A stretch of DNA of 36,717 nucleotides from Escherichia phage Mu. Position 1 is the first letter of the stretch, and each line of letters starts with the position of its first letter. The translations under genes and the position numbers were made by a program. Below, piece by piece: positions 3,358 through 36,717 of the stretch. The notes under the pieces are model-generated. The model was not told the origin of the DNA and did no database searches. It saw only the letters and a list, made by a program, of their open reading frames with translations. The DNA is taken from the sequence record NC_000929.1; one strand, 5' to 3'.

Positions 3358-4296
3358 ATGAATATTTCCGATATTCGCGCAGGACTGCGCACGCTTGTAG
3401 AAAATGAAGAAACCACCTTTAAACAAATTGCTCTTGAGAGCGGGCTTTCTACCGGAACTATCAGTAGTTTTATCAATGATAAGTACAACGGGGATAACGA
3501 GCGTGTTTCACAAATGCTGCAACGCTGGCTGGAAAAATATCATGCAGTGGCAGAACTACCTGAACCGCCCCGCTTTGTGGAAACGCAGACGGTAAAACAA
3601 ATCTGGACAAGTATGCGTTTTGCCAGCCTGACTGAAAGTATTGCTGTTGTATGTGGCAATCCTGGTGTGGGCAAAACCGAAGCGGCCCGTGAATATCGCC
3701 GCACCAATAACAATGTCTGGATGATCACCATTACGCCATCCTGTGCCAGCGTTCTGGAATGTCTTACTGAACTGGCGTTTGAGCTGGGAATGAATGACGC
3801 ACCACGCCGTAAAGGGCCGCTCTCCCGCGCCCTGCGACGTCGCCTTGAAGGTACACAGGGGCTGGTTATCATCGACGAAGCTGATCATCTTGGTGCCGAA
3901 GTTCTGGAAGAACTCCGCCTGTTACAGGAATCAACCCGTATTGGCCTTGTGCTGATGGGAAATCACCGGGTTTATTCAAATATGACGGGGGGTAACAGAA
4001 CGGTTGAATTTGCCCGTCTGTTTTCCCGTATTGCAAAGCGCACTGCAATTAATAAAACCAAAAAAGCCGATGTAAAAGCTATTGCGGATGCCTGGCAGAT
4101 TAACGGCGAAAAAGAACTGGAGTTATTACAGCAGATTGCGCAGAAACCAGGTGCGCTTCGCATTCTGAATCATTCACTTCGCCTTGCAGCCATGACGGCT
4201 CACGGTAAAGGTGAGCGTGTTAACGAAGATTATCTGCGTCAGGCTTTCCGTGAATTAGACCTGGACGTTGATATTTCAACGCTGCTGCGTAATTAA
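3358..4296 (+). CDS. B: MuB, ATP-dependent target DNA activator (312 aa)
   Basis: 312-aa ORF with a Walker A motif (GNPGVGKTEA) and Walker B-like IIDEADHL; follows A as in Mu. Confidence 0.95.
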   Translation: MNISDIRAGLRTLVENEETTFKQIALESGLSTGTISSFINDKYNGDNERVSQMLQRWLEKYHAVAELPEPPRFVETQTVKQIWTSMRFASLTESIAVVCGNPGVGKTEAAREYRRTNNNVWMITITPSCASVLECLTELAFELGMNDAPRRKGPLSRALRRRLEGTQGLVIIDEADHLGAEVLEELRLLQESTRIGLVLMGNHRVYSNMTGGNRTVEFARLFSRIAKRTAINKTKKADVKAIADAWQINGEKELELLQQIAQKPGALRILNHSLRLAAMTAHGKGERVNEDYLRQAFRELDLDVDISTLLRN

Positions 4297-4311
4297 GAAG
4301 GAGAAGAAATT

Positions 4312-4539
4312 ATGATGGCCCGAAATATAAAAATGGCAACGGATGCGCAGAACTGGTTACAGGCGCGCGGGAGTCATGTAAATGAATCATATCTCGGCGT
4401 GGCGCGTCCGATTCTTGAAATCACTTACCCACCGGTGGAACTGGTAAAAAACGCGGTCAGAATTATGGAGCATAAGTCCGGGGTGGCCCGTTCTGTATGG
4501 ACGGCCCGTCTTAATGGTTGCCAGATTATCTGGAGATAA
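4312..4539 (+). CDS. kil: Small early protein, probably Kil (host-killing/cell-division inhibitor)
   Basis: 75-aa ORF directly after B with an AAGGAG RBS; position and size fit Mu kil (~74 aa). Naming rests on position and size only. Confidence 0.6.
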
Positions 4540-4541
4540 CG

Positions 4542-4772
4542 ATGTGTATTAAAGCTGAAAAATATATTGAATGGGTTAAACACTGTCAGTGCCACGGGGT
4601 GCCGCTGACGACATATAAATGCCCCGGATGTGGTGAACAGATTATGACGCAATGCTCACCCGAAAAGGAAATTCGGGATTCCCTGACATGTTGTCCGTGG
4701 TGCAGCGCAGTTTTCTTTAAACAGGTAAAAGGCGCGAAGGTAAAAGCCAGCGCGGTTATTCAGAATCAATAA
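4542..4772 (+). CDS. Early small Cys-rich protein (putative zinc-ribbon), function unknown
   Basis: ATG at 4542 follows the kil stop (TAA 4537-4539) with a GGAGA RBS; the product contains C-x-C ... CPGC ... CC-x2-C. The ORF-track start at 4518 overlaps kil and is less likely. Confidence 0.65.
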   Translation: MCIKAEKYIEWVKHCQCHGVPLTTYKCPGCGEQIMTQCSPEKEIRDSLTCCPWCSAVFFKQVKGAKVKASAVIQNQ

Positions 4773-4783
4773 GGTGAAACAAA

Positions 4784-5047
4784 ATGGCAAAAGTAATTAT
4801 TGAAATTAAAAATACAGTATCTGGAATTAAAGGACGGAATTTGCGCACCAGCATTGCGGTGGACGGTAGTGCGGAACTGGACGGTGATGAGGGTACACTT
4901 GCTGGCATGGTGGCGTTACTGGTGCTTAATAAAAGCCAGAAAATAATTAATGAGTCAGCCCATGAAGCTATTGAGATTTTGAAAAACGATGGTGTCATCA
5001 CCAGTGGTCGTGTCACTGAAATGGCTGTTGAAAAAACATGTCACTGA
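4784..5047 (+). CDS. Early hypothetical protein (87 aa)
   Basis: ORF with an AAGGTGA RBS, tightly packed in the early operon; no recognisable domain. Confidence 0.6.
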   Translation: MAKVIIEIKNTVSGIKGRNLRTSIAVDGSAELDGDEGTLAGMVALLVLNKSQKIINESAHEAIEILKNDGVITSGRVTEMAVEKTCH

Positions 5048-5061
5048 AAGGAACGCTGACA

Positions 5062-5481
5062 ATGAATGTCAAAATCCGAAATGAAATTCAGGCATTAATC
5101 CGAATTCAGGAACGCAATAACAACGGTGGTGAATTACGCGAGTTTATTTGTGCGCGTGAAGTTGATGGCTATGGTGAAAAAACTTACCTGATTACTTTCG
5201 ACCATTACAGCATCTGTGCGCGTTATTGCGGCGAAAGCATATCCCGCGCCATTGCGTCTGGCGATGCGTTTAACGTGGATTTATGGGAGTACGTCATGGA
5301 CCGGGAATACATCTGCGCATCAGACCCTGAAGCCCGTGAAATGTGGCAGCGTATCTGGCGCGATTACCGGTTAATGGCAAAAGGCTGGGCGCGCTGCTGT
5401 TATTCCTCGCTTGCCCTGAAAGCGGTTCAGTTATCGCTGCGGCATATTCCGGCATCACTGCGCGAGCCTCTGCTGTACTGA
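5062..5481 (+). CDS. Early hypothetical protein (139 aa; alternative start 5038)
   Basis: In-frame ATG at 5062 preceded by AAGGAAC; the ORF-track start at 5038 overlaps the previous gene. Confidence 0.6.
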   Translation: MNVKIRNEIQALIRIQERNNNGGELREFICAREVDGYGEKTYLITFDHYSICARYCGESISRAIASGDAFNVDLWEYVMDREYICASDPEAREMWQRIWRDYRLMAKGWARCCYSSLALKAVQLSLRHIPASLREPLLY

Positions 5482-5493
5482 ATGGTGACTGAC

Positions 5494-5781
5494 ATGAAGT
5501 GTAATCGTAAGCGCTGGTCACGCGAAGACCGGGAATTTATCGAAGCCAACGTCGGGAAAATGACCGTTGAAGAAATGGCGGAAAAACTGAAAGTCGCCAC
5601 AACCGCCCTCCGGGCACATGCCAGAAGGCACGGAATATCATTGTGTGTATACCGAATCAGTGAACACGACAAATATTTATGTCGTGAACTTTATAAAGAA
5701 GGACTGGATATTCATGTTATTGCCCGAAAGATGGAATTAAGCAATCGAGCTGTATCCAGCATTGTATACAGCGGATATTAA
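5494..5781 (+). CDS. Early hypothetical protein with a helix-turn-helix-like segment (95 aa; alternative start 5482)
   Basis: ATG at 5494 preceded by GGTGA; the product contains MTVEEMAEKLKVATTALRAHARRHG, which looks HTH-like. Confidence 0.55.
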   Translation: MKCNRKRWSREDREFIEANVGKMTVEEMAEKLKVATTALRAHARRHGISLCVYRISEHDKYLCRELYKEGLDIHVIARKMELSNRAVSSIVYSGY

Positions 5782-5800
5782 TTAACAGGAGCTTTAATTT

Positions 5801-6325
5801 ATGGCTAAACCAGCAAAACGTATCAAGAGTGCCGCAGCGGCTTATGTGCCACAAAACCGCGATGCGGTGATTACCGATATTAAACGCATCGGGGATTTAC
5901 AGCGCGAAGCATCACGTCTGGAAACGGAAATGAATGATGCCATCGCGGAAATTACGGAGAAATTTGCGGCCCGGATTGCACCGATTAAAACCGATATTGA
6001 AACCCTTTCAAAAGGCGTTCAGGGATGGTGTGAAGCGAACCGCGACGAACTGACGAACGGCGGCAAAGTGAAGACGGCGAATCTTGTCACCGGTGATGTA
6101 TCGTGGCGGGTCCGTCCACCATCAGTAAGTATTCGTGGTATGGATGCAGTGATGGAAACGCTGGAGCGTCTTGGCCTGCAACGCTTTATTCGCACGAAGC
6201 AGGAAATCAACAAGGAAGCGATTTTACTGGAACCGAAAGCGGTCGCAGGCGTTGCCGGAATTACAGTTAAATCAGGCATTGAGGATTTTTCTATTATTCC
6301 ATTTGAACAGGAAGCCGGTATTTAA
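5801..6325 (+). CDS. gam: Gam, Ku-like DNA-end binding protein protecting linear DNA from host nuclease (174 aa)
   Basis: 174-aa ORF (MAKPAKRIKSAAAAYVPQNRDAVITDIKRIGD...) with an AGGAG RBS; recognised as Mu Gam. Confidence 0.9.
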   Translation: MAKPAKRIKSAAAAYVPQNRDAVITDIKRIGDLQREASRLETEMNDAIAEITEKFAARIAPIKTDIETLSKGVQGWCEANRDELTNGGKVKTANLVTGDVSWRVRPPSVSIRGMDAVMETLERLGLQRFIRTKQEINKEAILLEPKAVAGVAGITVKSGIEDFSIIPFEQEAGI

Positions 6326-6423
6326 TACCACCATTAATATTTAATTAATTCACATTCTTTTAATTATGGCGCGATACGTCAGGAGATTGCTCGCGCCTGA
6401 AACAGATTACTGAGGAATAAAAC

Positions 6424-6954
6424 ATGGTTGATGCAAAAATTCTGAATGGTGTCAGCACATTATTACGGGCTTACGGACGCCTGACCTGCGGAGTTCTGGC
6501 TGAAAAAATGAATATGCTGCCCTCGTCAATGGTGTATTTCCTGCGTGATGCGGTTGATGCCGGAGTGCTCACCGAATGCAACGGATTTTATGACGTTCCG
6601 CGCCCGCGTCCGACGCCGCCTGTAAGACGAAACGCAACTGAGCAGCCTGCTGTTGATGATGCGGTGTGGTGCAACTGGCGTCGCTCATTACCCTGGGTGG
6701 AAGGTAATACCATCCCCGCGCTGGCAAAAGAGTTTGCGACGGGCGTGCTGACCTGTGAGTCAGTCCACATTGTTGCTGAGGTGGATAACAGAATGTGCGA
6801 ACAGGGAATGCCCCGTTTTGTGATGGCTTATATCGATATCCGGCTGGGGCGTTTTATTTGCAGTTCAAGCGTCTGGAATATCACCGACCATGTACTGCGT
6901 TATCTCATTCTTGATTGTTCTCCGGCTCCCGCAGCGGTGCAGGAGGTGGCGTGA
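6424..6954 (+). CDS. Early hypothetical protein (176 aa), possible winged-helix N-terminus
   Basis: ORF with a GAGGA RBS; the N-terminus resembles a small DNA-binding fold; function unknown. Confidence 0.6.
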   Translation: MVDAKILNGVSTLLRAYGRLTCGVLAEKMNMLPSSMVYFLRDAVDAGVLTECNGFYDVPRPRPTPPVRRNATEQPAVDDAVWCNWRRSLPWVEGNTIPALAKEFATGVLTCESVHIVAEVDNRMCEQGMPRFVMAYIDIRLGRFICSSSVWNITDHVLRYLILDCSPAPAAVQEVA

Positions 6955-7484
6955 TGTTTTTTAAAACGTCAAATCCCGCAGCACTGCTGGCGTGGGACCA
7001 GTTTATGGCGGACTGTCTGAAACTACGCGAAGAAGCCCGCCATCTTGATAAGGTTCTGGGTTGTGGTTGCCGGTCAGTATTCAGCACAAGTATTGGTGGG
7101 CGTTATTTTCATGGTGTGAACTTTCCGGGGAATGAGCGCCCTTTCTCGCGGGAGCTGTGGACCGTACAACGGCCCGCATCAGGTAACAGTTGCAGGCCCA
7201 GAACTTCGCGGATACCTGCTCATCTCAGGGAGCAGGCAAGAGAGCTGGCGAAAATATGGCAGGAGAATATTCCGGTCACTTACGCCCGCACAGACGCTCT
7301 TTTACCCGCACTGGGACTGGATTTCAGCGCAACAATATTCGGGCCGCTCCAGTGGTTCCGTGTTGGTGATGTGATTTACGTCATGACGGGGATGACACCC
7401 GCGCAAGGCCGCATGACTGAAATCCTTTCTGACGAATTTATCCGGGCGCAAAAACAGGCGGAGGTAAACAATGGAAAACAATAA
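6954..7484 (+). CDS. Early hypothetical protein (176 aa)
   Basis: ATG at 6954 overlaps the previous stop (TGATG) and is preceded by AGGAGGTGG; the ORF-track start at 6915 is upstream in the same frame. Confidence 0.65.
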   Translation: MFFKTSNPAALLAWDQFMADCLKLREEARHLDKVLGCGCRSVFSTSIGGRYFHGVNFPGNERPFSRELWTVQRPASGNSCRPRTSRIPAHLREQARELAKIWQENIPVTYARTDALLPALGLDFSATIFGPLQWFRVGDVIYVMTGMTPAQGRMTEILSDEFIRAQKQAEVNNGKQ

Positions 7485-7653
7485 AACATCGTATTCGTGG
7501 CTGGGGAAATTCACCACGGTGAAACAGGAATGCCCGACCTGCGGTAATGAATCCCCTGAATATCTGAAAGAGTGCCCTCATTGTGGCGGGCTGAAATGCA
7601 ACCACTGCGATATGGGCGATGACACAGCGTGCATGAATTGTGAAGGTGAATAA
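7471..7653 (+). CDS. Early small Cys-rich protein (60 aa, putative zinc ribbon)
   Basis: GGAGGT RBS; product has CPTCG ... CPHCG ... C-x2-C ... C-x2-C, i.e. four CxxC pairs. Confidence 0.65.
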   Translation: MENNKTSYSWLGKFTTVKQECPTCGNESPEYLKECPHCGGLKCNHCDMGDDTACMNCEGE

Positions 7654-7654
7654 T

Positions 7655-7957
7655 ATGAATAATGAAACTAAATTTACTCCCCTTAATATTGATAACGTCA
7701 TGGCTGAAAAAGGGATGCTGGAACGTGTTCGCGCTATCGTTGAATATGGTATTAAGCATAATCTCACCGCCAGAGAAGTCCGTGACATTATCAACCGCGA
7801 AATGAATCGTCTGGAAACAGTAGTGGCACTGCAAAATGAAACAGCCCGCGAGGAGTACATCCGCCGCAGGCTGGGGCTATCAGACCAGGATATTGTTACT
7901 GACGCTCATGTGTTTGAGGCTTTTGAGATCCGTCAGCATCTGGGTCTAACGAACTGA
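7655..7957 (+). CDS. Early hypothetical protein (100 aa)
   Basis: ATG at 7655 immediately after the previous stop (TAA 7651-7653) with a GAAGGTGAA RBS; the ORF-track start at 7640 is a GTG. Confidence 0.6.
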   Translation: MNNETKFTPLNIDNVMAEKGMLERVRAIVEYGIKHNLTAREVRDIINREMNRLETVVALQNETAREEYIRRRLGLSDQDIVTDAHVFEAFEIRQHLGLTN

Positions 7958-9962: not shown

Positions 9963-10385
9963 ATGCAGCATGATTTATTTGAACACGATCCGGCAATTCG
10001 CCAGTTAATCGGACATATTGATAACATCCCGGCCCCGGAACTGGAATCACGCTGGCCCCGTTCGGTGGTTGATCTGATTGATGTTCTGGAAAACGAACTG
10101 AAACGCCAGAACGTCAGCAATCCCCGTGAACTTGCCCGTAAACAGGCCGTTGCCCTGTCCTGTTTTCTGGGTGGACGGCAGTTTTACATCCCCTGCGGCG
10201 ATACGATCCTGACCGCGTTACGCGACGATTTGCTTTACTGCCAGTTTAATGGTCGTAACATGGAAGAACTGCGTCGCCAGTACCGCCTGTCCCAGCCGCA
10301 GATCTACCAGATTATTGCCCGCCAGAGAAAGCTGCATACACGACGTCATCAGCCTGATCTGTTCTCACCTGAAACCCCAAAATAA
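9963..10385 (+). CDS. C: C, late transcription activator (140 aa)
   Basis: 140-aa ORF with GGGGGAAAA upstream; paralog of Mor; position before the lysis and morphogenesis genes. Confidence 0.9.
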   Translation: MQHDLFEHDPAIRQLIGHIDNIPAPELESRWPRSVVDLIDVLENELKRQNVSNPRELARKQAVALSCFLGGRQFYIPCGDTILTALRDDLLYCQFNGRNMEELRRQYRLSQPQIYQIIARQRKLHTRRHQPDLFSPETPK

Positions 10386-29842: not shown

Positions 29843-30925
29843 ATGGCTTATTCACCACCGACATTATCATCGCTGATTGCCCGTACAGAACAGAATATTG
29901 AACAGCGCCTGCCGGGTAGCTGGCCTCAGGCCCGTGAAAAAACGCTGAGTGCCATTGCTTATGCTCAGGCGGGCCTTGCTGCCGGTTGTCACGAGCATAT
30001 TTCATGGGTTGGACGGCAGATTATCCCGTCGACAGCAGATGAAGATGAGTTGCTGGAGCACTGCCGGTTCTGGGGCGTGCGCCGCAAACAGGCGACAGCC
30101 GCCAGCGGCCCGCTGACTGTCACCACATCGGCAGCGACCACCATTCCTGCCGGTACACGCTGGCAGCGTGCTGATGGTGTGGTTTACAGCCTGGCTGATA
30201 CCATTGTGATTGACCGTGCAGGAACGACGGAAATTACCGTTACCGCACTGGCTGCCGGTGAAGCAGGAAATACCGGTGAGAATACCCTTTTAACGTTGAT
30301 CACCCCGGTTGCCTGTGTTGTTTCCGATGCCATCACTGTAAAAGGGTTTTCCGGTGGAGCTGATATTGAGAGTGCAGCGGAGCTGCTGTCACGGCTGGAA
30401 TATCGTGTCCAGTATCCTCCGTTCGGCGGTAATCAGTTTGATTACGTTCGCTGGGCACGTGAAGTCAGCGGTGTTACCCGTGCCTGGTGTTTTCCGACAT
30501 GGAAAGGCGGTGGCACAGTCGGGGTGACGTTTGTTATGGATAACCGGAGCAATATTTTTCCGCAACCGGCAGACGTGGAACGCGTGGCGGATTATATCGC
30601 CGGTCATACTGACCCGATCACTGGTCTGATTGTCGGACAGCCTGACGGTGTAAATGTCACGGTATTTGCGCCAAAGGCAAAGCCGGTAAATCCACGGATT
30701 TATATATCACCGAAGACAGCCGAACTGAAACAGGCTATTACCAACGCCATTAATACCATGTTTTTTAATGAGGTGATGCCGGGCGGCGCACTTGCCCCCT
30801 CCCGTATTATCCGTGCGGTGGCAGGTGTTACCGGTCTGGATGATTTTGAAGTGCGTTTCCCGACAGAGATCCAGCGTTCGGAGAATACGGAACTCTTAAC
30901 AGCGGGGACAATTGAATGGCTGTAA
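29843..30925 (+). CDS. R: Baseplate wedge protein R (360 aa)
   Basis: ATG directly after the W stop codon; position in the baseplate block. Confidence 0.78.
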   Translation: MAYSPPTLSSLIARTEQNIEQRLPGSWPQAREKTLSAIAYAQAGLAAGCHEHISWVGRQIIPSTADEDELLEHCRFWGVRRKQATAASGPLTVTTSAATTIPAGTRWQRADGVVYSLADTIVIDRAGTTEITVTALAAGEAGNTGENTLLTLITPVACVVSDAITVKGFSGGADIESAAELLSRLEYRVQYPPFGGNQFDYVRWAREVSGVTRAWCFPTWKGGGTVGVTFVMDNRSNIFPQPADVERVADYIAGHTDPITGLIVGQPDGVNVTVFAPKAKPVNPRIYISPKTAELKQAITNAINTMFFNEVMPGGALAPSRIIRAVAGVTGLDDFEVRFPTEIQRSENTELLTAGTIEWL

Positions 30926-31458
30926 CACCCTGGCAGACGGCCTTTCTGCAATTACTGCCGTCAGGGCTTGCCTGGAATAAAAGCCCCGACAGCAAATTAT
31001 CTGCGCTGGCGCAGGCCATCAGCGACGTGATTGCCACTGCGGCGGATGATGCGCGGCAAATGCTGCGGGAGCGTTTCCCGTCCACATCCCGCTGGTATCT
31101 GGGGGAGTGGGAATCATTTCTGGGGTTGCCGGACTGTACCAGCGAAAACGGCACCCTGTCCGAACGCCAGCGGGCTGCCGCGAATAAAATGCGTATGACC
31201 GGCAATCTGAGTCGGCGCTTTTATGAATGGCTGGCTGCGCAGTACGGTTTTACCGTCAGGCTGACGGATTCCACAGAAGGCCAGTGGGTTACGCAGGTCA
31301 ATATTTACGGTATTAAAAATTATCGCAACGCAACGGTGCTGGATAATGTTCTGACGCCGTTACGTGTTTATGAATCGGGTGCGCTGGAATGTTTACTGGA
31401 GAAATATAAACCCGCGCATCAGATTTATAAATTTGTTTACCATGACGGAGATAACTAA
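30916..31458 (+). CDS. Baseplate wedge / tail-fibre attachment protein (180 aa)
   Basis: Overlaps R at its 5' end and S at its 3' end (TAATG). Confidence 0.75.
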   Translation: MAVTPWQTAFLQLLPSGLAWNKSPDSKLSALAQAISDVIATAADDARQMLRERFPSTSRWYLGEWESFLGLPDCTSENGTLSERQRAAANKMRMTGNLSRRFYEWLAAQYGFTVRLTDSTEGQWVTQVNIYGIKNYRNATVLDNVLTPLRVYESGALECLLEKYKPAHQIYKFVYHDGDN

Positions 31459-32972
31459 TGTTTTATATTGATAACGACAGCGGCGTAACCGTCATGCCGC
31501 CCGTATCCGCCCAGCGTAGTGCTATCGTTCGCTGGTTTTCAGAAGGTGACGGGAATAATGTTATCACATGGCCCGGCATGGACTGGTTTAATATTGTGCA
31601 GGCGGAGTTATTAAACACGCTGGAAGAAGCCGGTATTCAACCGGATAAAACAAAATTAAACCAGCTTGCACTGTCCATTAAAGCCATTATGAGCAATAAC
31701 GCGCTGCTGATAAAAAATAACCTCAGCGAAATTAAAACTGCCGGGGCATCAGCACAGCGTACAGCACGTGAAAATCTGGATATCTATGATGCCAGCCTGA
31801 ACAAAAAAGGACTCGTTCAGCTAACCAGTGCCACTGACAGCCCCAGTGAAACGCTGGCAGCCACCGCAAAAGCGGTGAAAATTGCAATGGATAATGCCAA
31901 TGCCCGTCTGGCAAAAGACCGGAACGGAGCAGATATTCCCAATAAGCCGCTGTTTATCCAAAACCTCGGTTTACAGGAAACGGTAAACAGGGCTAGGAAC
32001 GCCGTGCAAAAGAATGGCGATACCTTGTCCGGTGGGCTTACTTTTGAAAACGACTCAATCCTTGCCTGGATTCGAAATACTGACTGGGCAAAGATTGGAT
32101 TTAAAAATGATGCCGACAGCGACACTGATTCATACATGTGGTTTGAAACAGGCGACAACGGCAATGAATATTTCAAATGGAGAAGCAAACAAAGCACCAC
32201 AACAAAAGACCTGATGAATCTTAAATGGGATGCTTTGTCTGTTCTTGTCAATGCCATTGTAAATGGCGAAGTCATATCAAAATCAGCAAACGGCCTCCGT
32301 ATTGCTTATGGTAATTACGGATTCTTTATTCGTAATGATGGTTCAAATACATACTTCATGTTGACAAACTCCGGTGACAACATGGGGACTTATAACGGAT
32401 TAAGGCCATTATGGATTAATAACGCTACTGGCGCTGTTTCGATGGGGCGTGGTCTTAATGTTTCAGGGGATACACTTTCAGACCGTTTTGCTATTAACAG
32501 CAGTAATGGTATGTGGATTCAGATGCGCGATAACAACGCTATCTTTGGGAAAAATATAGTTAACACTGATAGCGCTCAGGCGTTGCTTCGCCAGAATCAC
32601 GCCGACCGCAAATTTATGATTGGCGGTCTGGGAAATAAGCAATTTGGCATCTACATGATTAATAACTCAAGGACAGCCAATGGCACCGATGGTCAGGCGT
32701 ACATGGATAATAACGGAAACTGGTTATGCGGTGCTCAGGTCATTCCGGGAAATTACGCCAACTTTGACTCCCGCTACGTGCGTGACGTTCGGCTGGGAAC
32801 TCAGTCACTGACTGGCGGCTTGTCTCGTGATTACAAGGCGCCATCCGGTCATGTTATTACAGGTTTTCATACCAATGGCGACTGGGAAATGCAGGGAGGG
32901 GATGACAAGGTTTATATCCGTCCGGTTCAGAAGAATATCAACGGTACCTGGTATAATGTAGCGAGCGCCTGA
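31458..32972 (+). CDS. S: Tail fibre protein S (504 aa): constant part (31458-31953) fused to the variable part inside the G segment
   Basis: The ORF crosses the left inverted repeat at 31954; the peptide [11 protein letters not shown] is encoded by the repeat and is shared with the minus-strand S' ORF. Confidence 0.9.
31954..31987 (+). repeat. Left 34-bp inverted repeat of the G segment (Gin recombination site)
   Basis: ttatccaaaacctcggtttacaggaaacggtaaa; its exact reverse complement is at 35004-35037. Confidence 0.9.
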
Positions 32973-32974
32973 TT

Positions 32975-33502
32975 ATGATGCATCTGAAAAACATTAAGTC
33001 AGAAAATCCAAAAACTAAAGAGCAATATCAGCTAACAAAGAATTTTGATGTTATCTGGTTATGGTCCGAAGACGGGAAAAACTGGTATGAAGAAGTAAAT
33101 AACTTTCAGGACGACACCATAAAGATTGTATACGACGAAAATAATATTATTGTTGCCATAACCAAAGATGCCTCAACGCTTAATCCCGAAGGCTTTAGCG
33201 TCGTTGAGATTCCAGATATAACAGCCAACCGCCGCGCTGATGATTCAGGAAAGTGGATGTTTAAGGATGGAGCTGTAGTTAAACGGATTTATACGGCAGA
33301 CGAACAGCAACAACAAGCCGAATCACAAAAGGCCGCATTGCTTTCCGAAGCTGAATCAGTCATCCAGCCGCTGGAACGCGCTGTCAGGCTGAATATGGCG
33401 ACGGATGAGGAACGCGCACGACTGGAGTCATGGGAACGCTACAGTGTTCTGGTCAGCCGTGTGGATACGGCAAATCCCGAATGGCCACAAAAGCCTGAAT
33501 AA
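32975..33502 (+). CDS. U: Tail fibre assembly protein U (175 aa)
   Basis: Starts [22 protein letters not shown]; clear paralog of the minus-strand U' ORF ([22 protein letters not shown]). Confidence 0.88.
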
Positions 33503-33507
33503 AAATT

Positions 33508-33527
33508 AAGGCCCGATAGCGGGCCTT
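33508..33527. terminator. Bidirectional hairpin terminator between convergent U and U'
   Basis: Stem AAGGCCCG / CGGGCCTT with loop ATAG, lying between the two convergent stop codons. Confidence 0.7.
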
Positions 33528-33530
33528 CTC

Positions 33531-34064
33531 TCATTCTGGTTGTTCTGGAAACGTTACTGGCAGGCTGGAGGTGTCTGTGGATTCGACCTTCTGCGCGTAG
33601 AGCATCCACTCTGTTAATTTTTGTTTATTCTCGTCGGAAATGATGCCCAGCCGTAGCTGTGAGTCCCATAGCTGTGTTTTATCCCTGACGAGCTGTAGCA
33701 GGCTTTGCTTTTCATTTTCCGCTTGTTGCCTCTGCTCTTCCTCGGTATAAGTTCGCTTTATCACTACACCATCTTTGAACATCCATTTACCCGAAATATC
33801 AGCCCGGCGATTTGCTGTAATATCAGGAACCTCAACGACGTTTGCGCCTTCTGGATTAATTGCTGAAACATCCTTTTCAATACAAATAATAACGCCGTTG
33901 TGGTCATAGACCATTTTCAACGTATCAGGCTGAAAGTTCTTTTGTTCCTCATACCAGTTTTTCCCATCCTCTGTATAAAGCCATTTGATGTTAAATTGTT
34001 TCGTTAGCTGGTATTGCTCTTTTGTTTTAGGGTTGCCAGCAGTAATATTTTTTAAGTGCATCAT
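33531..34064 (-). CDS. U': Alternative tail fibre assembly protein U' (177 aa)
   Basis: Paralog of U on the opposite strand inside the G segment. Confidence 0.88.
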   Translation of the reverse strand: MMHLKNITAGNPKTKEQYQLTKQFNIKWLYTEDGKNWYEEQKNFQPDTLKMVYDHNGVIICIEKDVSAINPEGANVVEVPDITANRRADISGKWMFKDGVVIKRTYTEEEQRQQAENEKQSLLQLVRDKTQLWDSQLRLGIISDENKQKLTEWMLYAQKVESTDTSSLPVTFPEQPE

Positions 34065-34066
34065 AA

Positions 34067-35037
34067 TTAAATACTCCCCGCGTTATACCACGTTCCATTA
34101 ATGCAATACTGAATTGGCCTTGCCTGAGTTGTATCAATTAATTCATCACGGTTTCCGTTAACTGAACCCGTAACGACATAACCTGACCTGTCAGACCAGC
34201 CGGGACCATTCCATGTCTGAACAGATGACAGACCGCCAAGACGAATACCTGTAATAAACCTTGAGTTACATTCTGCCTGCGTATATGCACCAACATCTCC
34301 CGCTGATGGCTTACGTGTTGTGGTGTAAATTTCTGACCAGTCAGCTTCGAATCCGTAACCATCACGCGCTGAACGATAAAAAATACCGCCGTTCCTGTAA
34401 TTCACACGGAACTGTACGGCAGGGCAACTCCCCGTATTCATATTGAAGTGGAGGATTAATGTCGATGCGCCACCAATATTTGCGTTATAGACCCCGCTAT
34501 TCCAGTTCCAGCCAACAGCTTTATCATTTCCGACAGTGCTTCCTGTTTGTCCTAAAGCAAATGCAGGCTGCTGGTTTTTCGTGTTGTAGTCTCGTCGCCA
34601 GCCAGGAGCATAAGCATCACCATGATTAATATAAGTGAATTGAGCGTTAGTGATTCCGCCGCCGCTGGACGTACTCGGCGTAGTAACGCGTATGGTCATT
34701 GCGCCGCGAGTGCCAATAACTTCCACCACAGCACCTGCAAGACAAATATTTCCGCAACCTGTATCTGTAATGACCTTATTGTTTGCATAAGCCCATGAGC
34801 CTTTGCACATCCAGTAAGGATGGTTAAATGCCCCCTGACTCTCCAGCCACGAAATAAATTGTGCGGTTGTCCAGACCTGACTATCGCCACCAATATTCAG
34901 CCATGCGCTATATGCGCGACAGGCCCCAATATTTTTGGTGAAGGTATCTTTTCCTGGAATATCTGCGCCGTTCTGGTTTTGCTGTAATGCGCCAGAAGCC
35001 TGATTTACCGTTTCCTGTAAACCGAGGTTTTGGATAA
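34067..35037 (-). CDS. S': Alternative tail-fibre variable part S' (promoterless here; fuses to the constant part of S after inversion)
   Basis: The minus-strand ORF shares the repeat-encoded [12 protein letters not shown] with S and then diverges. The ORF-track 5' extension beyond 35037 runs outside the G segment and is not expected to be translated. Confidence 0.8.
35004..35037 (+). repeat. Right 34-bp inverted repeat of the G segment (Gin recombination site)
   Basis: tttaccgtttcctgtaaaccgaggttttggataa, the reverse complement of 31954-31987. Confidence 0.9.
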
Positions 35038-35091
35038 TGGTCGATTTTGGCACGCATGGCATGATTGGCGCTTTTAAACAGGAGATCCAGA

Positions 35092-35673
35092 GTGCTGATT
35101 GGCTATGTAAGGGTATCAACAAATGACCAGAATACAGACCTGCAACGAAACGCTCTTGTTTGTGCAGGATGTGAACAAATATTTGAAGATAAATTAAGCG
35201 GAACAAGGACAGACCGACCGGGATTAAAACGCGCTTTAAAGCGCCTTCAAAAAGGTGACACACTGGTTGTCTGGAAACTGGATCGCCTCGGGCGAAGCAT
35301 GAAACATTTGATTTCTCTCGTAGGGGAATTACGAGAGCGAGGGATTAATTTTCGCAGTCTTACTGACAGTATTGATACGTCATCTCCAATGGGGCGTTTT
35401 TTCTTCCACGTTATGGGTGCCCTGGCTGAAATGGAACGAGAACTAATTATCGAGCGAACGATGGCTGGACTTGCTGCCGCCAGAAATAAAGGCCGTATTG
35501 GTGGGCGACCACCTAAACTAACCAAAGCGGAATGGGAGCAGGCCGGGCGTTTATTAGCACAAGGAATCCCCCGCAAGCAGGTTGCATTGATCTACGATGT
35601 GGCCCTGTCAACTCTGTATAAAAAACACCCCGCGAAACGAGCGCATATAGAAAACGACGATCGAATCAATTAA
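35092..35673 (+). CDS. gin: Gin, serine-recombinase DNA invertase (193 aa)
   Basis: GTG start at 35092 gives MLIGYVRVSTNDQNTDLQ with the catalytic-serine motif of resolvase/invertase enzymes and a C-terminal HTH; GGAG upstream. The ORF-track start at 35065 is a TTG. Confidence 0.92.
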   Translation: MLIGYVRVSTNDQNTDLQRNALVCAGCEQIFEDKLSGTRTDRPGLKRALKRLQKGDTLVVWKLDRLGRSMKHLISLVGELRERGINFRSLTDSIDTSSPMGRFFFHVMGALAEMERELIIERTMAGLAAARNKGRIGGRPPKLTKAEWEQAGRLLAQGIPRKQVALIYDVALSTLYKKHPAKRAHIENDDRIN

Positions 35674-35767
35674 ATCGATCGGTAATACAGATCGATTATG
35701 CCCCAATAACCACACTCAACCCATGATGTTTTTTAAGATAGTGGCGAATTGATGCAAAGGAGGTGAG
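35659..35767 (+). promoter_or_regulatory. mom operon control region: three GATC (Dam) sites and the C-dependent promoter Pmom
   Basis: GATC at 35659-35662, 35677-35680 and 35690-35693, followed by TTATGCCCCAATAACCACACTCAACCC and the com RBS AAAGGAGGTGAG. The regulatory roles are from established Mu biology. Confidence 0.7.
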
Positions 35768-35956
35768 ATGAAATCAATTCGCTGTAAAAACTGCAACAAA
35801 CTGTTATTTAAGGCGGATTCCTTTGATCACATTGAAATCAGGTGTCCGCGTTGCAAACGTCACATCATAATGCTGAATGCCTGCGAGCATCCCACGGAGA
35901 AACATTGTGGGAAAAGAGAAAAAATCACGCATTCTGACGAAACCGTGCGTTATTGA
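35768..35956 (+). CDS. com: Com, zinc-finger translational activator of mom (62 aa)
   Basis: [33 protein letters not shown] with two CxxC pairs; overlaps the 5' end of mom. Confidence 0.9.
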
Positions 35957-36602
35957 GTATGAAGGCCAGATTGTTGGCTATGGTTCAAAGGAGCTGCGCG
36001 TTGAAACCATATCCTGCTGGCTGGCCCGCACAATTATTCAGACAAAGCACTATTCCCGCCGTTTTGTGAATAACTCTTACCTTCACCTGGGGGTATTCAG
36101 CGGACGCGATCTGGTTGGCGTTCTCCAGTGGGGATATGCCCTTAACCCCAACTCAGGTCGTCGTGTCGTGCTTGAAACGGATAACCGGGGCTATATGGAG
36201 TTGAACCGCATGTGGCTACACGACGACATGCCCCGCAACTCTGAATCACGGGCCATCAGCTACGCGCTGAAAGTTATCAGATTACTGTATCCGTCAGTGG
36301 AGTGGGTTCAGTCCTTTGCAGATGAACGCTGCGGACGCGCAGGCGTTGTGTATCAGGCGTCGAATTTTGATTTTATTGGCAGTCATGAAAGTACGTTCTA
36401 CGAGCTGGATGGTGAGTGGTATCACGAGATAACGATGAACGCGATTAAGCGAGGTGGACAACGAGGCGTGTATTTACGGGCTAATAAAGAGCGTGCCGTG
36501 GTACACAAATTTAATCAGTATCGCTACATCAGATTCCTGAACAAACGAGCAAGGAAGCGGCTAAATACCAAACTATTCAAGGTTCAGCCATACCCTAAGT
36601 GA
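35877..36602 (+). CDS. mom: Mom, DNA adenine modification enzyme conferring anti-restriction (alternative GTG start at 35907)
   Basis: 241-aa ORF from the ATG at 35877, overlapping the 3' end of com by 80 nt; last gene before the right end. Which start is used is uncertain. Confidence 0.85.
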
Positions 36603-36640
36603 TCCCCATGTAATGAATAAAAAGCAGTAATTAATACATC

Positions 36641-36717
36641 TGTTTCATTTGAAGCGCGAAAGCTAAAGTTTTCGCATTTATCGTGAAACGCTTTCGCGTT
36701 TTTCGTGCGCCGCTTCA
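36641..36717 (+). repeat. Right-end transposase binding sites R3 (36641-36662), R2 (~36667-36690, inverted), R1 (36695-36717, inverted)
   Basis: tgtttcatttgaagcgcgaaag in direct orientation; the reverse complements cgtttcacgataaatgcgaaaac and tgaagcggcgcacgaaaaacgcg match the end-site motif seen at the left end; the window ends in ...CA. Confidence 0.85.

Follow-up and report, generated by a model that had tools for sequence, protein, structure and literature searches.

The com–mom operon of bacteriophage Mu: its control layers located on the sequence and a likely GTG start for mom

The region described here is most probably the phage Mu com–mom operon, a late, tightly controlled module against restriction in which mom starts at GTG 35907 rather than at ATG 35877 (we put the probability of this reading at roughly 0.85). 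The region lies in a 36,717-nucleotide stretch of DNA, the whole of which was analysed and is called the window below. Its identity as the Mu operon follows from a 1118-bp segment that is 100% identical to the Mu copy of E. coli S17-1 and to an E. coli W prophage, S17-1 being a strain which we take to be a carrier of phage Mu itself. Identity was thus set through E. coli genomes carrying Mu, the reference Mu record not being among the best matches in the phage collection. The perfect match to the E. coli genomes stops exactly at 36717, the last base of the window, and host genes follow. The gene order gin-com-mom is the same in D108 and SfMu, which are 96-98% identical. As gin adjoins com–mom on the upstream side and the window ends at the Mu/host junction, the module occupies the right-end position next to gin and attR.

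The operon has been a subject of study since the 1980s, reportedly in the laboratories of Kahmann, Hattman and Nagaraja, with Hattman 1999 said to be the review. It is a classic case both of a toxic gene held under several layers of control and of DNA hypermodification as a phage's means of escaping restriction, and for this reason its presence in a Mu genome adds nothing new. The identification met no counter-evidence, and the system is already known. Each of the published control layers can be assigned a position in the sequence, namely the Dam/OxyR region, the C dyad, the weak promoter, the Com target and the translation-inhibition stem. The original prediction of a com-mom module is borne out in that all of the elements it named are present and agree with the published system (PMC3378877, PMC4461284, PMC6483171). 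Its account of multi-layer control by Dam, C and Com was right as far as it went, but was incomplete and partly dated, leaving out OxyR, Fis, the divergent promoter momP2 and the current view of Mom chemistry. The features are as follows.

9963..10385, + strand: C, a member of the Mor/C family and the late activator that acts on Pmom in trans (140-aa ORF, Pfam Mor 9.4e-34)
35092..35673, + strand: gin, the G-segment invertase (Pfam Resolvase and HTH_7; start taken from the D108, SfMu and PGAP annotations)
35647..35693, no strand: Dam/OxyR control region, an ATAG followed by three GATC (assigned from conserved geometry and literature roles)
35696..35709, no strand: dyad TTATGCCCCAATAA (pattern TTAT-N6-ATAA), core of the site bound by the late activator C
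35709..35746, + strand: Pmom, comprising -35, spacer, -10 and an inferred start
35768..35956, + strand: com, encoding a 62-aa zinc-ribbon RNA-binding translational activator (Pfam PF10122, Zn_ribbon_Com, 2.7e-9)
35875..35899, + strand: Com target in the transcript; its sequence is exactly the published one, 5'-GAAUGCCUGCGAGCAUCCCACGGAG (PMC6483171)
35891..35911, + strand: translation-inhibition stem, CCCACGG (35891-35897) pairing with UUGUGGG (35905-35911)
35907..36602, + strand: mom, 231 codons from GTG, the open frame extending back to ATG 35877 (241 codons); Pfam Mom
36603..36717, no strand: right end of Mu (attR), carrying repeats for transposase binding, hairpins that resemble terminators, and the junction at 36717

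The three GATC sites predicted to lie within 35 bp were found at 35659-35662, 35677-35680 and 35690-35693, that is, at -87, -69 and -56 relative to the inferred transcription start. The first GATC is preceded, at a distance of 8 nt, by an ATAG that is kept together with the GATC geometry. The sites had been placed immediately upstream of the promoter and com. They are upstream of com, but the first GATC falls inside the last gin codons and the third sits at the upstream edge of the C-protein site. OxyR is assigned to this region in the literature, which also describes the roles of OxyR and Dam (PMC3378877, PMC10742451). The methylation-sensitive repressor is the host OxyR protein, Fis represses as well, and momP2 competes (PMC3378877). 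OxyR is said to bind only unmethylated or hemimethylated DNA and to repress (PMC3378877, which cites Bölker & Kahmann 1989 and Hattman & Sun 1997). Host OxyR bound to the unmethylated or hemimethylated three-GATC region would thereby block transcription and full Dam methylation would keep it off, with host Fis and momP2 providing additional repression.

The cluster is the tightest group of three GATC sites in the window, the runner-up spanning 70 bp, and GATC is under-represented overall (72 sites versus 132 +/- 11 expected). With 72 randomly placed sites, some cluster of 35 bp or less arises with P = 0.11. Genome-wide the cluster is therefore only weakly unusual, and the clustering statistic is not our main argument. 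That P value, together with the location of the first GATC inside gin, is what would favor an incidental cluster with no regulatory role, produced by chance or as a side effect of the coding sequence at the 3' end of gin. Judged from sequence comparison, conservation of the geometry is the stronger evidence. GATC-N14-GATC-N9-GATC is retained in diverged relatives despite spacer bases only 35-61% identical to those of Mu, levels at which the chance of retaining 12 of the 12 GATC bases is 3e-6 to 3e-3, and the longer arrangement ATAG-N8-GATC-N14-GATC-N9-GATC is also conserved across diverged loci. The geometry is kept even in phage Chuche, in which the cluster is intergenic and a gene other than gin precedes it, whereas the com loci of Pseudomonas and Moraxella phages have no upstream GATC. 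Given also the published genetics and biochemistry behind Dam/OxyR control (PMC3378877, PMC10742451), an incidental origin is effectively refuted by the literature and its probability is negligible.

The putative C-dependent promoter of the original prediction is likewise consistent with the sequence, which has a C-type dyad, a poor promoter and a C gene; C binding at Pmom is published, and the C-binding site overlaps the promoter (PMC4461284). The pattern TTAT-N6-ATAA occurs three times in the window versus 0.38 expected, and the half-sites of the Pmom dyad are invariant among relatives, with the central 6 bp varying. The C footprint at Pmom presumably runs from -57 to -28. Another dyad, TTATGGATTAATAA at 32409, sits within a tail-fibre ORF and is probably a chance occurrence.

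Pmom has a poor -35 element, ACCACA (35709-35714), and a -10 element, TAAGAT (35734-35739), separated by an over-long 19-bp spacer that carries a T6 run (35729-35734). The T6 stretch is common to Pmom and Plys (for Plys, PMC4461284). A sigma-70 consensus scan of 35500-36717 gave zero promoter matches, as expected of an activator-dependent promoter, a result that is consistent with activator dependence and not positive evidence for it. The published promoter clone spans -136 to +79 (PMC3378877), and its ends fit a HincII cut at 35609/35610 and a BclI cut after 35824 exactly if +1 is 35746. This restriction-site triangulation would put the transcription start at about 35746. Transcription would begin there, at a deliberately poor promoter that would fire only when C, bound to the dyad at 35696-35709, untwists the DNA and brings in RNA polymerase.

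The transcript encodes Com first, from a strong Shine-Dalgarno sequence (AAGGAGG at 35757-35763, duplex energy -12.9 kcal/mol). Com had been described as a 62-aa zinc-finger protein, and this is upheld by the 62-codon ORF, the Zn_ribbon_Com match and four cysteines (C6, C9, C26 and C29) that are invariant across seven homologues and are the zinc ligands (PMC3299994). The protein also matches the PHROG family 'gpCom control of modification' (4.6e-45). A search by sequence for a solved Com structure returned nothing at E <= 0.1, and NCBIfam has no model for either Com or Mom. Note that the RefSeq name for Com, 'DNA-binding transcriptional regulator', contradicts the published function of the protein, which is to bind RNA and activate translation. 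The com gene and the 5' end of mom overlap in different reading frames. The predicted overlap of 80 nt holds when counted from the ATG, but becomes 50 nt given a mom start at GTG 35907.

Within the Com target a small hairpin is formed by AUGC (35877-35880), the loop CUGCGA and GCAU (35887-35890), such that ATG 35877 is its 5' arm. The core of the target, GCC-N3/4-GAGC, is invariant across 21 distinct enteric variants. The enteric lineages mostly have three of the four hairpin pairs, the conserved feature there being the GCC-N3/4-GAGC sequence and not a stable stem. A C-G-closed hairpin with covarying stems was found in 17 of 20 non-enteric com loci versus 5% of shuffles. The search pattern (a C-G closing pair and a loop ending in GA) was self-defined and is thus partly circular, although the shuffle control was run.

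The translation-inhibition stem covers part of the mom Shine-Dalgarno sequence, GGAG (35896-35899), as well as the GUG start (35907-35909), which falls in its 3' arm, and the published model also locates the GUG within the stem (PMC6483171). The stem is present in both the minimum-free-energy and the centroid folds, and in the minimum-free-energy fold of five lineages. Its arms, CCCAC and GUGGG, are invariant across lineages, with a loop that varies from 7 to about 21 nt. Folding free energies are weak by themselves (z-scores of -1.0 to -2.9), and the minimum-free-energy fold of the Mu RNA gives a small hairpin slightly different from the published one. We therefore relied on conservation and covariation, since thermodynamic folding fails to single out the element. 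When 35500-36717 was scanned against Rfam at E <= 1, the sole match was to IS102, at chance level (21.5 bits versus a gathering score of 46, E = 0.45). Thus, the Com target and inhibitory stem appear to have no Rfam family; the element is conserved and could be modelled as one. In the proposed mechanism the stem at 35891-35911 would lock the mom ribosome-binding site and start codon, and Com bound to the adjacent 35875-35899 would open the stem such that mom is translated.

The mom start codon had been considered undecidable from sequence. This was too pessimistic, as the Shine-Dalgarno sequence, the role of the hairpin and the orthologues all favor GTG 35907. We infer that translation starts at this codon to give a 231-aa protein, and not at ATG 35877. 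The Shine-Dalgarno duplex energy is -6.6 kcal/mol for the GTG versus +1.2 kcal/mol for the ATG. In five Mom orthologues of 78-80% identity GCGC replaces AUGC and the sole in-frame start is the GUG of the stem, and one orthologue of 87% identity has the AUG in a different frame. Methyltransferase genes under Com control always start 3' of the first Com-type hairpin, at a distance of about 15-25 nt in enteric cassettes and of up to about 50 nt if a second element intervenes. PDB entry 8bv8 is Mom(delta10) S124A, the first residue of which is the one that the GTG encodes. The 231-aa Mom is fully active and its computed mass of 27,042 Da fits the reported 27,050 Da. The GUG is the codon named as the mom start in the published model (PMC6483171). 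The literature search found no N-terminal sequence or mass for Mom made from the native operon.

Were mom instead translated from ATG 35877 (241 aa), Com would act on a start codon within its own binding site. The ATG is the first start codon of the open frame, directly following an in-frame TGA, and it is the start annotated in D108, SfMu and RefSeq. Moreover, the 241-aa recombinant protein is active (PMC13219725), and all Mom loci of at least 85% identity retain an ATG, or a GTG in its place. However, this retention is equally explained by the pairing role of the triplet in the Com hairpin, where homologous cassettes have GCG, GAG, CAG, AGG or GCA as the 5' arm. The ATG has no Shine-Dalgarno complementarity, the 79%-identity orthologues have no start codon at that position, Mom residues 1-10 are dispensable and the published model uses the GUG. 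Furthermore, Com bound over the AUG should prevent initiation at that codon rather than activate it. We consider an ATG start improbable. Use of both codons, to give 241- and 231-aa isoforms differing in Com dependence, would agree with the activity of both recombinant forms and with the conservation of both codons in close relatives. The arguments against use of the ATG hold here as well, only one start is present in the 79%-identity orthologues, and no report of a Mom doublet was found in a partial literature survey; we regard two isoforms as very improbable.

The GTG start is thus the reading that we retain, and the comparative evidence supports correcting the mom annotation accordingly, although the databases still mostly give the ATG. 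The discrepancy in Mu com–mom is one of annotation only: 241 aa in GenBank, RefSeq and PMC13219725 versus 231 aa in the classical model, PMC7261163 and the Mu_3F6 record. The GenBank ATG annotations are those of D108 and SfMu, that of RefSeq comes from PGAP, and PMC13219725 numbers residues from the ATG. The inconsistent annotation has resulted in two residue numberings in the recent literature, R101/S114/D139 versus R111/S124/D149.

The mom frame ends with the stop codon at 36600-36602. Mom matches Pfam PF25680 over the full profile (2.4e-75; positions 1-202 of 202), differs from PDB 8bv8 solely by the engineered S124A substitution, and has all of the catalytic residues R111, S124, D149 and R151 (241-aa numbering). 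The predicted modification of adenine is supported by the Pfam match, the PDB identity and published chemistry, but was dated as to mechanism, which is glycine transfer: Mom moves glycine from Gly-tRNAGly onto adenine N6, and a rearrangement follows (PMC13219725). The enzyme is a GNAT-fold dimer and acts on adenines of double-stranded DNA. Its glycine adduct rearranges to N6-carbamoylmethyl-adenine, which blocks many restriction enzymes. Downstream of mom, terminator-like hairpins occupy 36656-36698, and homologous transposase sites are annotated in D108.

The modules of the Muvirus relatives D108, SfMu, PhiR68_1 and the Yersinia vB_YpM phages (96-98% identity) share gin-com-mom, the three GATC, the dyad with the T6 run, and both the hairpin and the inhibitory stem. 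They differ from Mu in that gin is four codons longer (C instead of T at 35671), and D108 and Mu_3F6 have an additional 447-nt ORF between mom and the right end. Com has precedent upstream of other enzymes. In Pseudomonas B3 (ORF47/48), FluMu (HI1522.1/HI1523), Hia5 and E. coli phage Chuche a Com zinc ribbon gene overlaps the 5' end of a DNA-modification gene (PMC3299994) and a Com-type hairpin lies upstream of the start of that gene. Unlike in Mu, the gene under Com control there encodes a methyltransferase (Pfam PF01555, PF02086 or PF00145) and not Mom. Chuche keeps both the CCCCAC/GUGGGG stem and the ATAG-N8-GATC-N14-GATC-N9-GATC region, whereas the Pseudomonas and Moraxella versions have neither the GATC cluster nor the CCCAC stem.

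The GATC-N14-GATC-N9-GATC geometry and the Com/stem cassette recur before four unrelated families of DNA-modification enzymes: Mom, C5-cytosine methylases, N6/N4 methylases and D12 adenine methylases. At about even odds, the control cassette (Dam/OxyR gate, com, GCC-N3/4-GAGC target and CCCAC...GUGGG start-codon stem) is a portable unit of enterobacterial phages that has been recombined before at least four unrelated enzyme families. If so, OxyR/Dam gating plus unlocking by Com would serve as a safeguard for toxic DNA-modification genes in general and would not be peculiar to mom. The location of Com upstream of methyltransferases is already published; conservation of the GATC geometry and the stem across enzyme families is apparently undescribed within the limited literature searched.

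Among tRNA-dependent GNAT-fold transferases, FemX and the TacT toxin have in common with Mom the GNAT fold and the use or recognition of the aminoacyl-tRNA CCA end (PMC13219725). Mom differs from both in its acceptor, adenine N6 in double-stranded DNA, and in a helix-turn-helix-like insertion (about residues 175-209) that is essential for activity. As to the control region, E. coli agn43 (flu) is repressed by OxyR at a site with three GATC, where Dam methylation prevents binding. The competition of OxyR and Dam over three GATC is shared with mom. In agn43 the competition gives a heritable on/off phase switch of a chromosomal gene, whereas in mom it guards a late gene of a phage as a safety gate, to which activation by C and translational control by Com are added as further layers.

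The locus is the com–mom operon of phage Mu, a system already known in detail. The original prediction of a modification module preceded by Dam sites was confirmed as an observation and supported in its interpretation. What is added here is a sequence-based case for a GTG start of mom, precise positions for all published control elements, and the modularity of the cassette. The genes are:

35092-35673, plus strand: gin, resolvase-type invertase (Pfam Resolvase and HTH_7; start as annotated in relatives)
35768-35956, plus strand: com, 62-codon ORF (ORF list; PF10122; PHROG 'gpCom control of modification')
35877-36602, plus strand: mom, 241-codon ORF (ORF list), with an in-frame GTG at 35907

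Over its final 1118 bp the 36,717-bp window shows 100% identity with chromosomal copies in E. coli S17-1, ST18 and W, and the match ends precisely at the terminal base with host genes beyond. S17-1 carries RP4-2-Tc::Mu. Identity is 96-98% in D108, SfMu and other Muvirus genomes, with gene order unchanged. Mom matched Pfam PF25680 (2.4e-75) and is the protein of PDB 8bv8 ('Methylcarbamoylase mom') apart from the engineered S124A. Com cysteines C6, C9, C26 and C29, which are zinc ligands (PMC3299994), are invariant in seven homologues. Note that at the equivalent of 35768-35956 in two RefSeq E. coli records (L134 and L135) PGAP gives Com the label 'Com family DNA-binding transcriptional regulator', unlike the RNA-binding translational activator of the literature, and that older annotations still list Mom as 'hypothetical protein'. 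An additional 447-nt ORF ('56, D108-specific protein') separates mom from the right end in D108 and Mu_3F6 (1960-2406 in each compared record). The window has no counterpart of this ORF, and its 115 bp attR directly follows mom. A pair of terminator-like hairpins with T runs after them (36656-36698) falls within the right-end transposase-binding repeats (sites as annotated in D108) and might also serve as the mom terminator.

The prediction that Mom modifies adenines and shields the DNA from restriction was right, and the mechanism has now been worked out: Mom, a dimer with a GNAT fold and an essential helix-turn-helix-like insertion, moves glycine from Gly-tRNAGly onto adenine N6 of double-stranded DNA, the glycine adduct then rearranging on the base to the carbamoylmethyl adduct (PMC13219725). 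This mechanism supersedes the acetyl-CoA/iron proposal of PMC7261163. Ambiguity over the mom start has had a cost: residues numbered R101/S114/D139 in PMC7261163 are R111/S124/D149 in PMC13219725.

The start had been considered undecidable between ATG 35877 and GTG 35907 from sequence. This was not borne out, as six lines of evidence favor GTG 35907, to which we assign a probability of about 0.85. The region of both codons contains the published Com target 5'-GAAUGCCUGCGAGCAUCCCACGGAG (PMC6483171), found at 35875-35899, and two RNA elements:

35877-35890: small hairpin AUGC/CUGCGA/GCAU, within the Com target
35891-35897 pairing with 35905-35911: stem CCCACGG/UUGUGGG, immediately downstream of the hairpin and present in the minimum-free-energy and centroid folds alike

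The stem (35891-35911) is predicted to bury half of the GGAG Shine-Dalgarno sequence plus GUG 35907. Folding energies were only modestly better than those of shuffled sequences (z-scores of -1.0 to -2.9). Among 21 distinct enteric variants the CCCAC/GUGGG arms and a GCC-N3/4-GAGC core are invariant, the loop of the hairpin is freely variable and that of the stem ranges from 7 to ~21 nt. Of 20 distinct non-enteric com loci, 17 had a hairpin of four perfect base pairs closed by C-G, its loop ending in GA, versus 5% of shuffles, a result that is supportive rather than independent evidence since we defined the search pattern ourselves. The non-enteric hairpin stems covary (AGGC/GCCU, GCAC/GUGC, CAGC/GCUG, GGGC/GCCC and others). 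Rfam holds no family for the Com target/stem element.

Pairing with the 16S rRNA tail upstream of the GTG was -6.6 kcal/mol, within the top 11% of windows in the genome, versus +1.2 kcal/mol, effectively none, upstream of ATG 35877. The ATG itself forms the 5' arm of this Com hairpin. It is replaced by GUG in close relatives, with pairing retained as G-U, and homologous cassettes have GCG, GAG, CAG, AGG, GCA or GGG at this position. Five distinct Mom orthologues (78-80% identity) have GCGC there; from the upstream stop to the conserved protein body, these offer no in-frame start other than the GUG of the stem 3' arm. Their similarity to Mu Mom begins exactly at that GUG (VGNRKQ versus VGKEKK in Mu). 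Com-regulated methyltransferases start downstream of the first Com-type hairpin, by 19-25 nt in enteric cassettes and by up to ~50 nt in non-enteric loci having a second hairpin nearer the start (such as B3 and UMP151); the Mu GUG lies 16 nt past the hairpin. Moreover, the 231-aa Mom is fully active and a 20-residue deletion lowers activity (PMC13219725), and purified Mom had a mass of 27,050 Da (PMC7261163), the calculated value for the 231-aa protein minus Met being 27,042 Da.

A further line of evidence for the GTG region, given low weight, comes from an 87% orthologue (contig L072, equal to L043). There, ~40 nt past the Com hairpin, the A run that follows the stem has gained one nucleotide, which puts both AUG and GUG out of frame; the only start left is a UUG lying 2 nt before the GUG position. 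The low weight reflects an indel in an A run of a single contig that could be a homopolymer sequencing error. Against the GTG, most records annotate the ATG (D108, SfMu and RefSeq PGAP), with the GTG only in Mu_3F6. Nor did the literature yield a determination of the N-terminus of Mom expressed natively.

The published promoter clone spans -136 to +79, and BstUI and PvuI deletions drop the Fis sites at -123 and -98 (PMC3378877). In the window HincII cuts at 35609/35610, BclI after 35824, BstUI at 35631 and PvuI at 35658 and 35676. As these sites fit the clone and deletions only if +1 is 35746, we infer that position, with little latitude. Relative to it the elements are:

35659, 35677 and 35690: GATC sites (-87, -69, -56)
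35696-35709: dyad TTATGCCCCAATAA (-50 to -37)
35709-35714: -35 hexamer ACCACA (-37 to -32)
35729-35734: T6 run (-17 to -12)
35734-35739: -10 hexamer TAAGAT (-12 to -7)
35768: com ATG (+23)

The hexamers are 19 bp apart and a consensus promoter scan of the region gave no match, which fits 'a weak, activator dependent promoter' having 'suboptimal spacing' and a 'T stretch' (PMC3378877). Among relatives the dyad half-sites are fixed and the six bases between them vary, as is characteristic of a site bound by a dimer. The pattern TTAT-N6-ATAA occurs three times in the window versus 0.38 expected. Another perfect copy, TTATGGATTAATAA at 32409-32422, is the same 14-mer as the mom promoter dyad of contig L043/L072; it sits within the 504-aa tail-fibre ORF (31458-32972) and is probably there by chance. 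The activator gene C is at 9963-10385 (Mor family, 9.4e-34); just downstream is Plys, which shares the T6 run with the mom promoter (PMC4461284). The predicted Dam, C and Com controls match those published; the prediction did not name host OxyR, the methylation-sensitive repressor, Fis, which represses from five sites, or momP2, a divergent promoter that competes for polymerase (all PMC3378877).

The three GATC sites within 35 bp upstream of com had been placed correctly to the base. GATC is depleted in the window (72 sites versus 132 +/- 11 expected), with two GATC-free gaps of ~4 kb each (3887-7926 and 30872-35083), the latter covering the lower-GC tail-fibre and invertible-segment region immediately left of gin. 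The triple is the tightest of the genome (runner-up 70 bp), but this statistic is weak by itself because random placement of 72 sites gave one as tight in 11% of trials. It is conservation rather than clustering that makes these sites convincing. The comparison drew on named phages and on viral contigs encoding Mom (44) or Com (80). GATC-N14-GATC-N9-GATC is kept in loci whose spacers are only 35-61% identical to Mu, where the probability of all 12 GATC bases surviving is 3e-6 to 3e-3, and most of these loci also have ATAG 8 nt upstream of the first GATC. Two or three GATC sites precede com in 47 of 50 distinct enteric-type loci, and none in Pseudomonas and Moraxella phage Com loci; P. aeruginosa is not known to have Dam. 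The gin stop in the window is TAA 35671-35673. In D108, SfMu and Mu_3F6 a C for T at 35671 lengthens gin by four codons, to TAA 35683-35685, and thus two of the three GATC sites fall within gin there.

Genes of four enzyme families have a com homologue upstream that overlaps them:

PF25680: Mom
PF00145: C5-cytosine methylase
PF01555: N6/N4 methylase
PF02086: D12 adenine methylase

In six contigs (L073, L095, L107, L108, L110 and L118; com at ~901) the enteric cassette, with GATC sites, GCC-N-GAGC core and CCCAC/GUGGGG stem with GUG start, precedes a C5-cytosine DNA methylase (PF00145, 2.4e-31) in place of Mom or an adenine methylase. PMC3299994 has already described Com ahead of methyltransferases, in B3 and FluMu among other related elements. 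Enteric versions share the GATC geometry and CCCAC/GUGGG stem whatever the enzyme; we found no account of this in the accessible literature and regard it as a small step beyond what is known. The GATC geometry of Mu recurs in E. coli phage Chuche, where the cluster is intergenic and away from gin and the regulated gene encodes a methyltransferase. Three Chuche-type contigs (L074, L114 and L115) retain an intact stem and have no GATC over the 140 nt preceding com, and may be natural variants without the Dam/OxyR gate. In Pseudomonas phages B3 and UMP151 two successive Com-type hairpins (AGGC-CGAGA-GCCU, then GCGC-CAUCGA/CGCUGA-GCGC), 19-60 nt after the com CPxC codons, precede the methyltransferase start, an arrangement that recalls the bipartite SELEX motif of PMC6483171.
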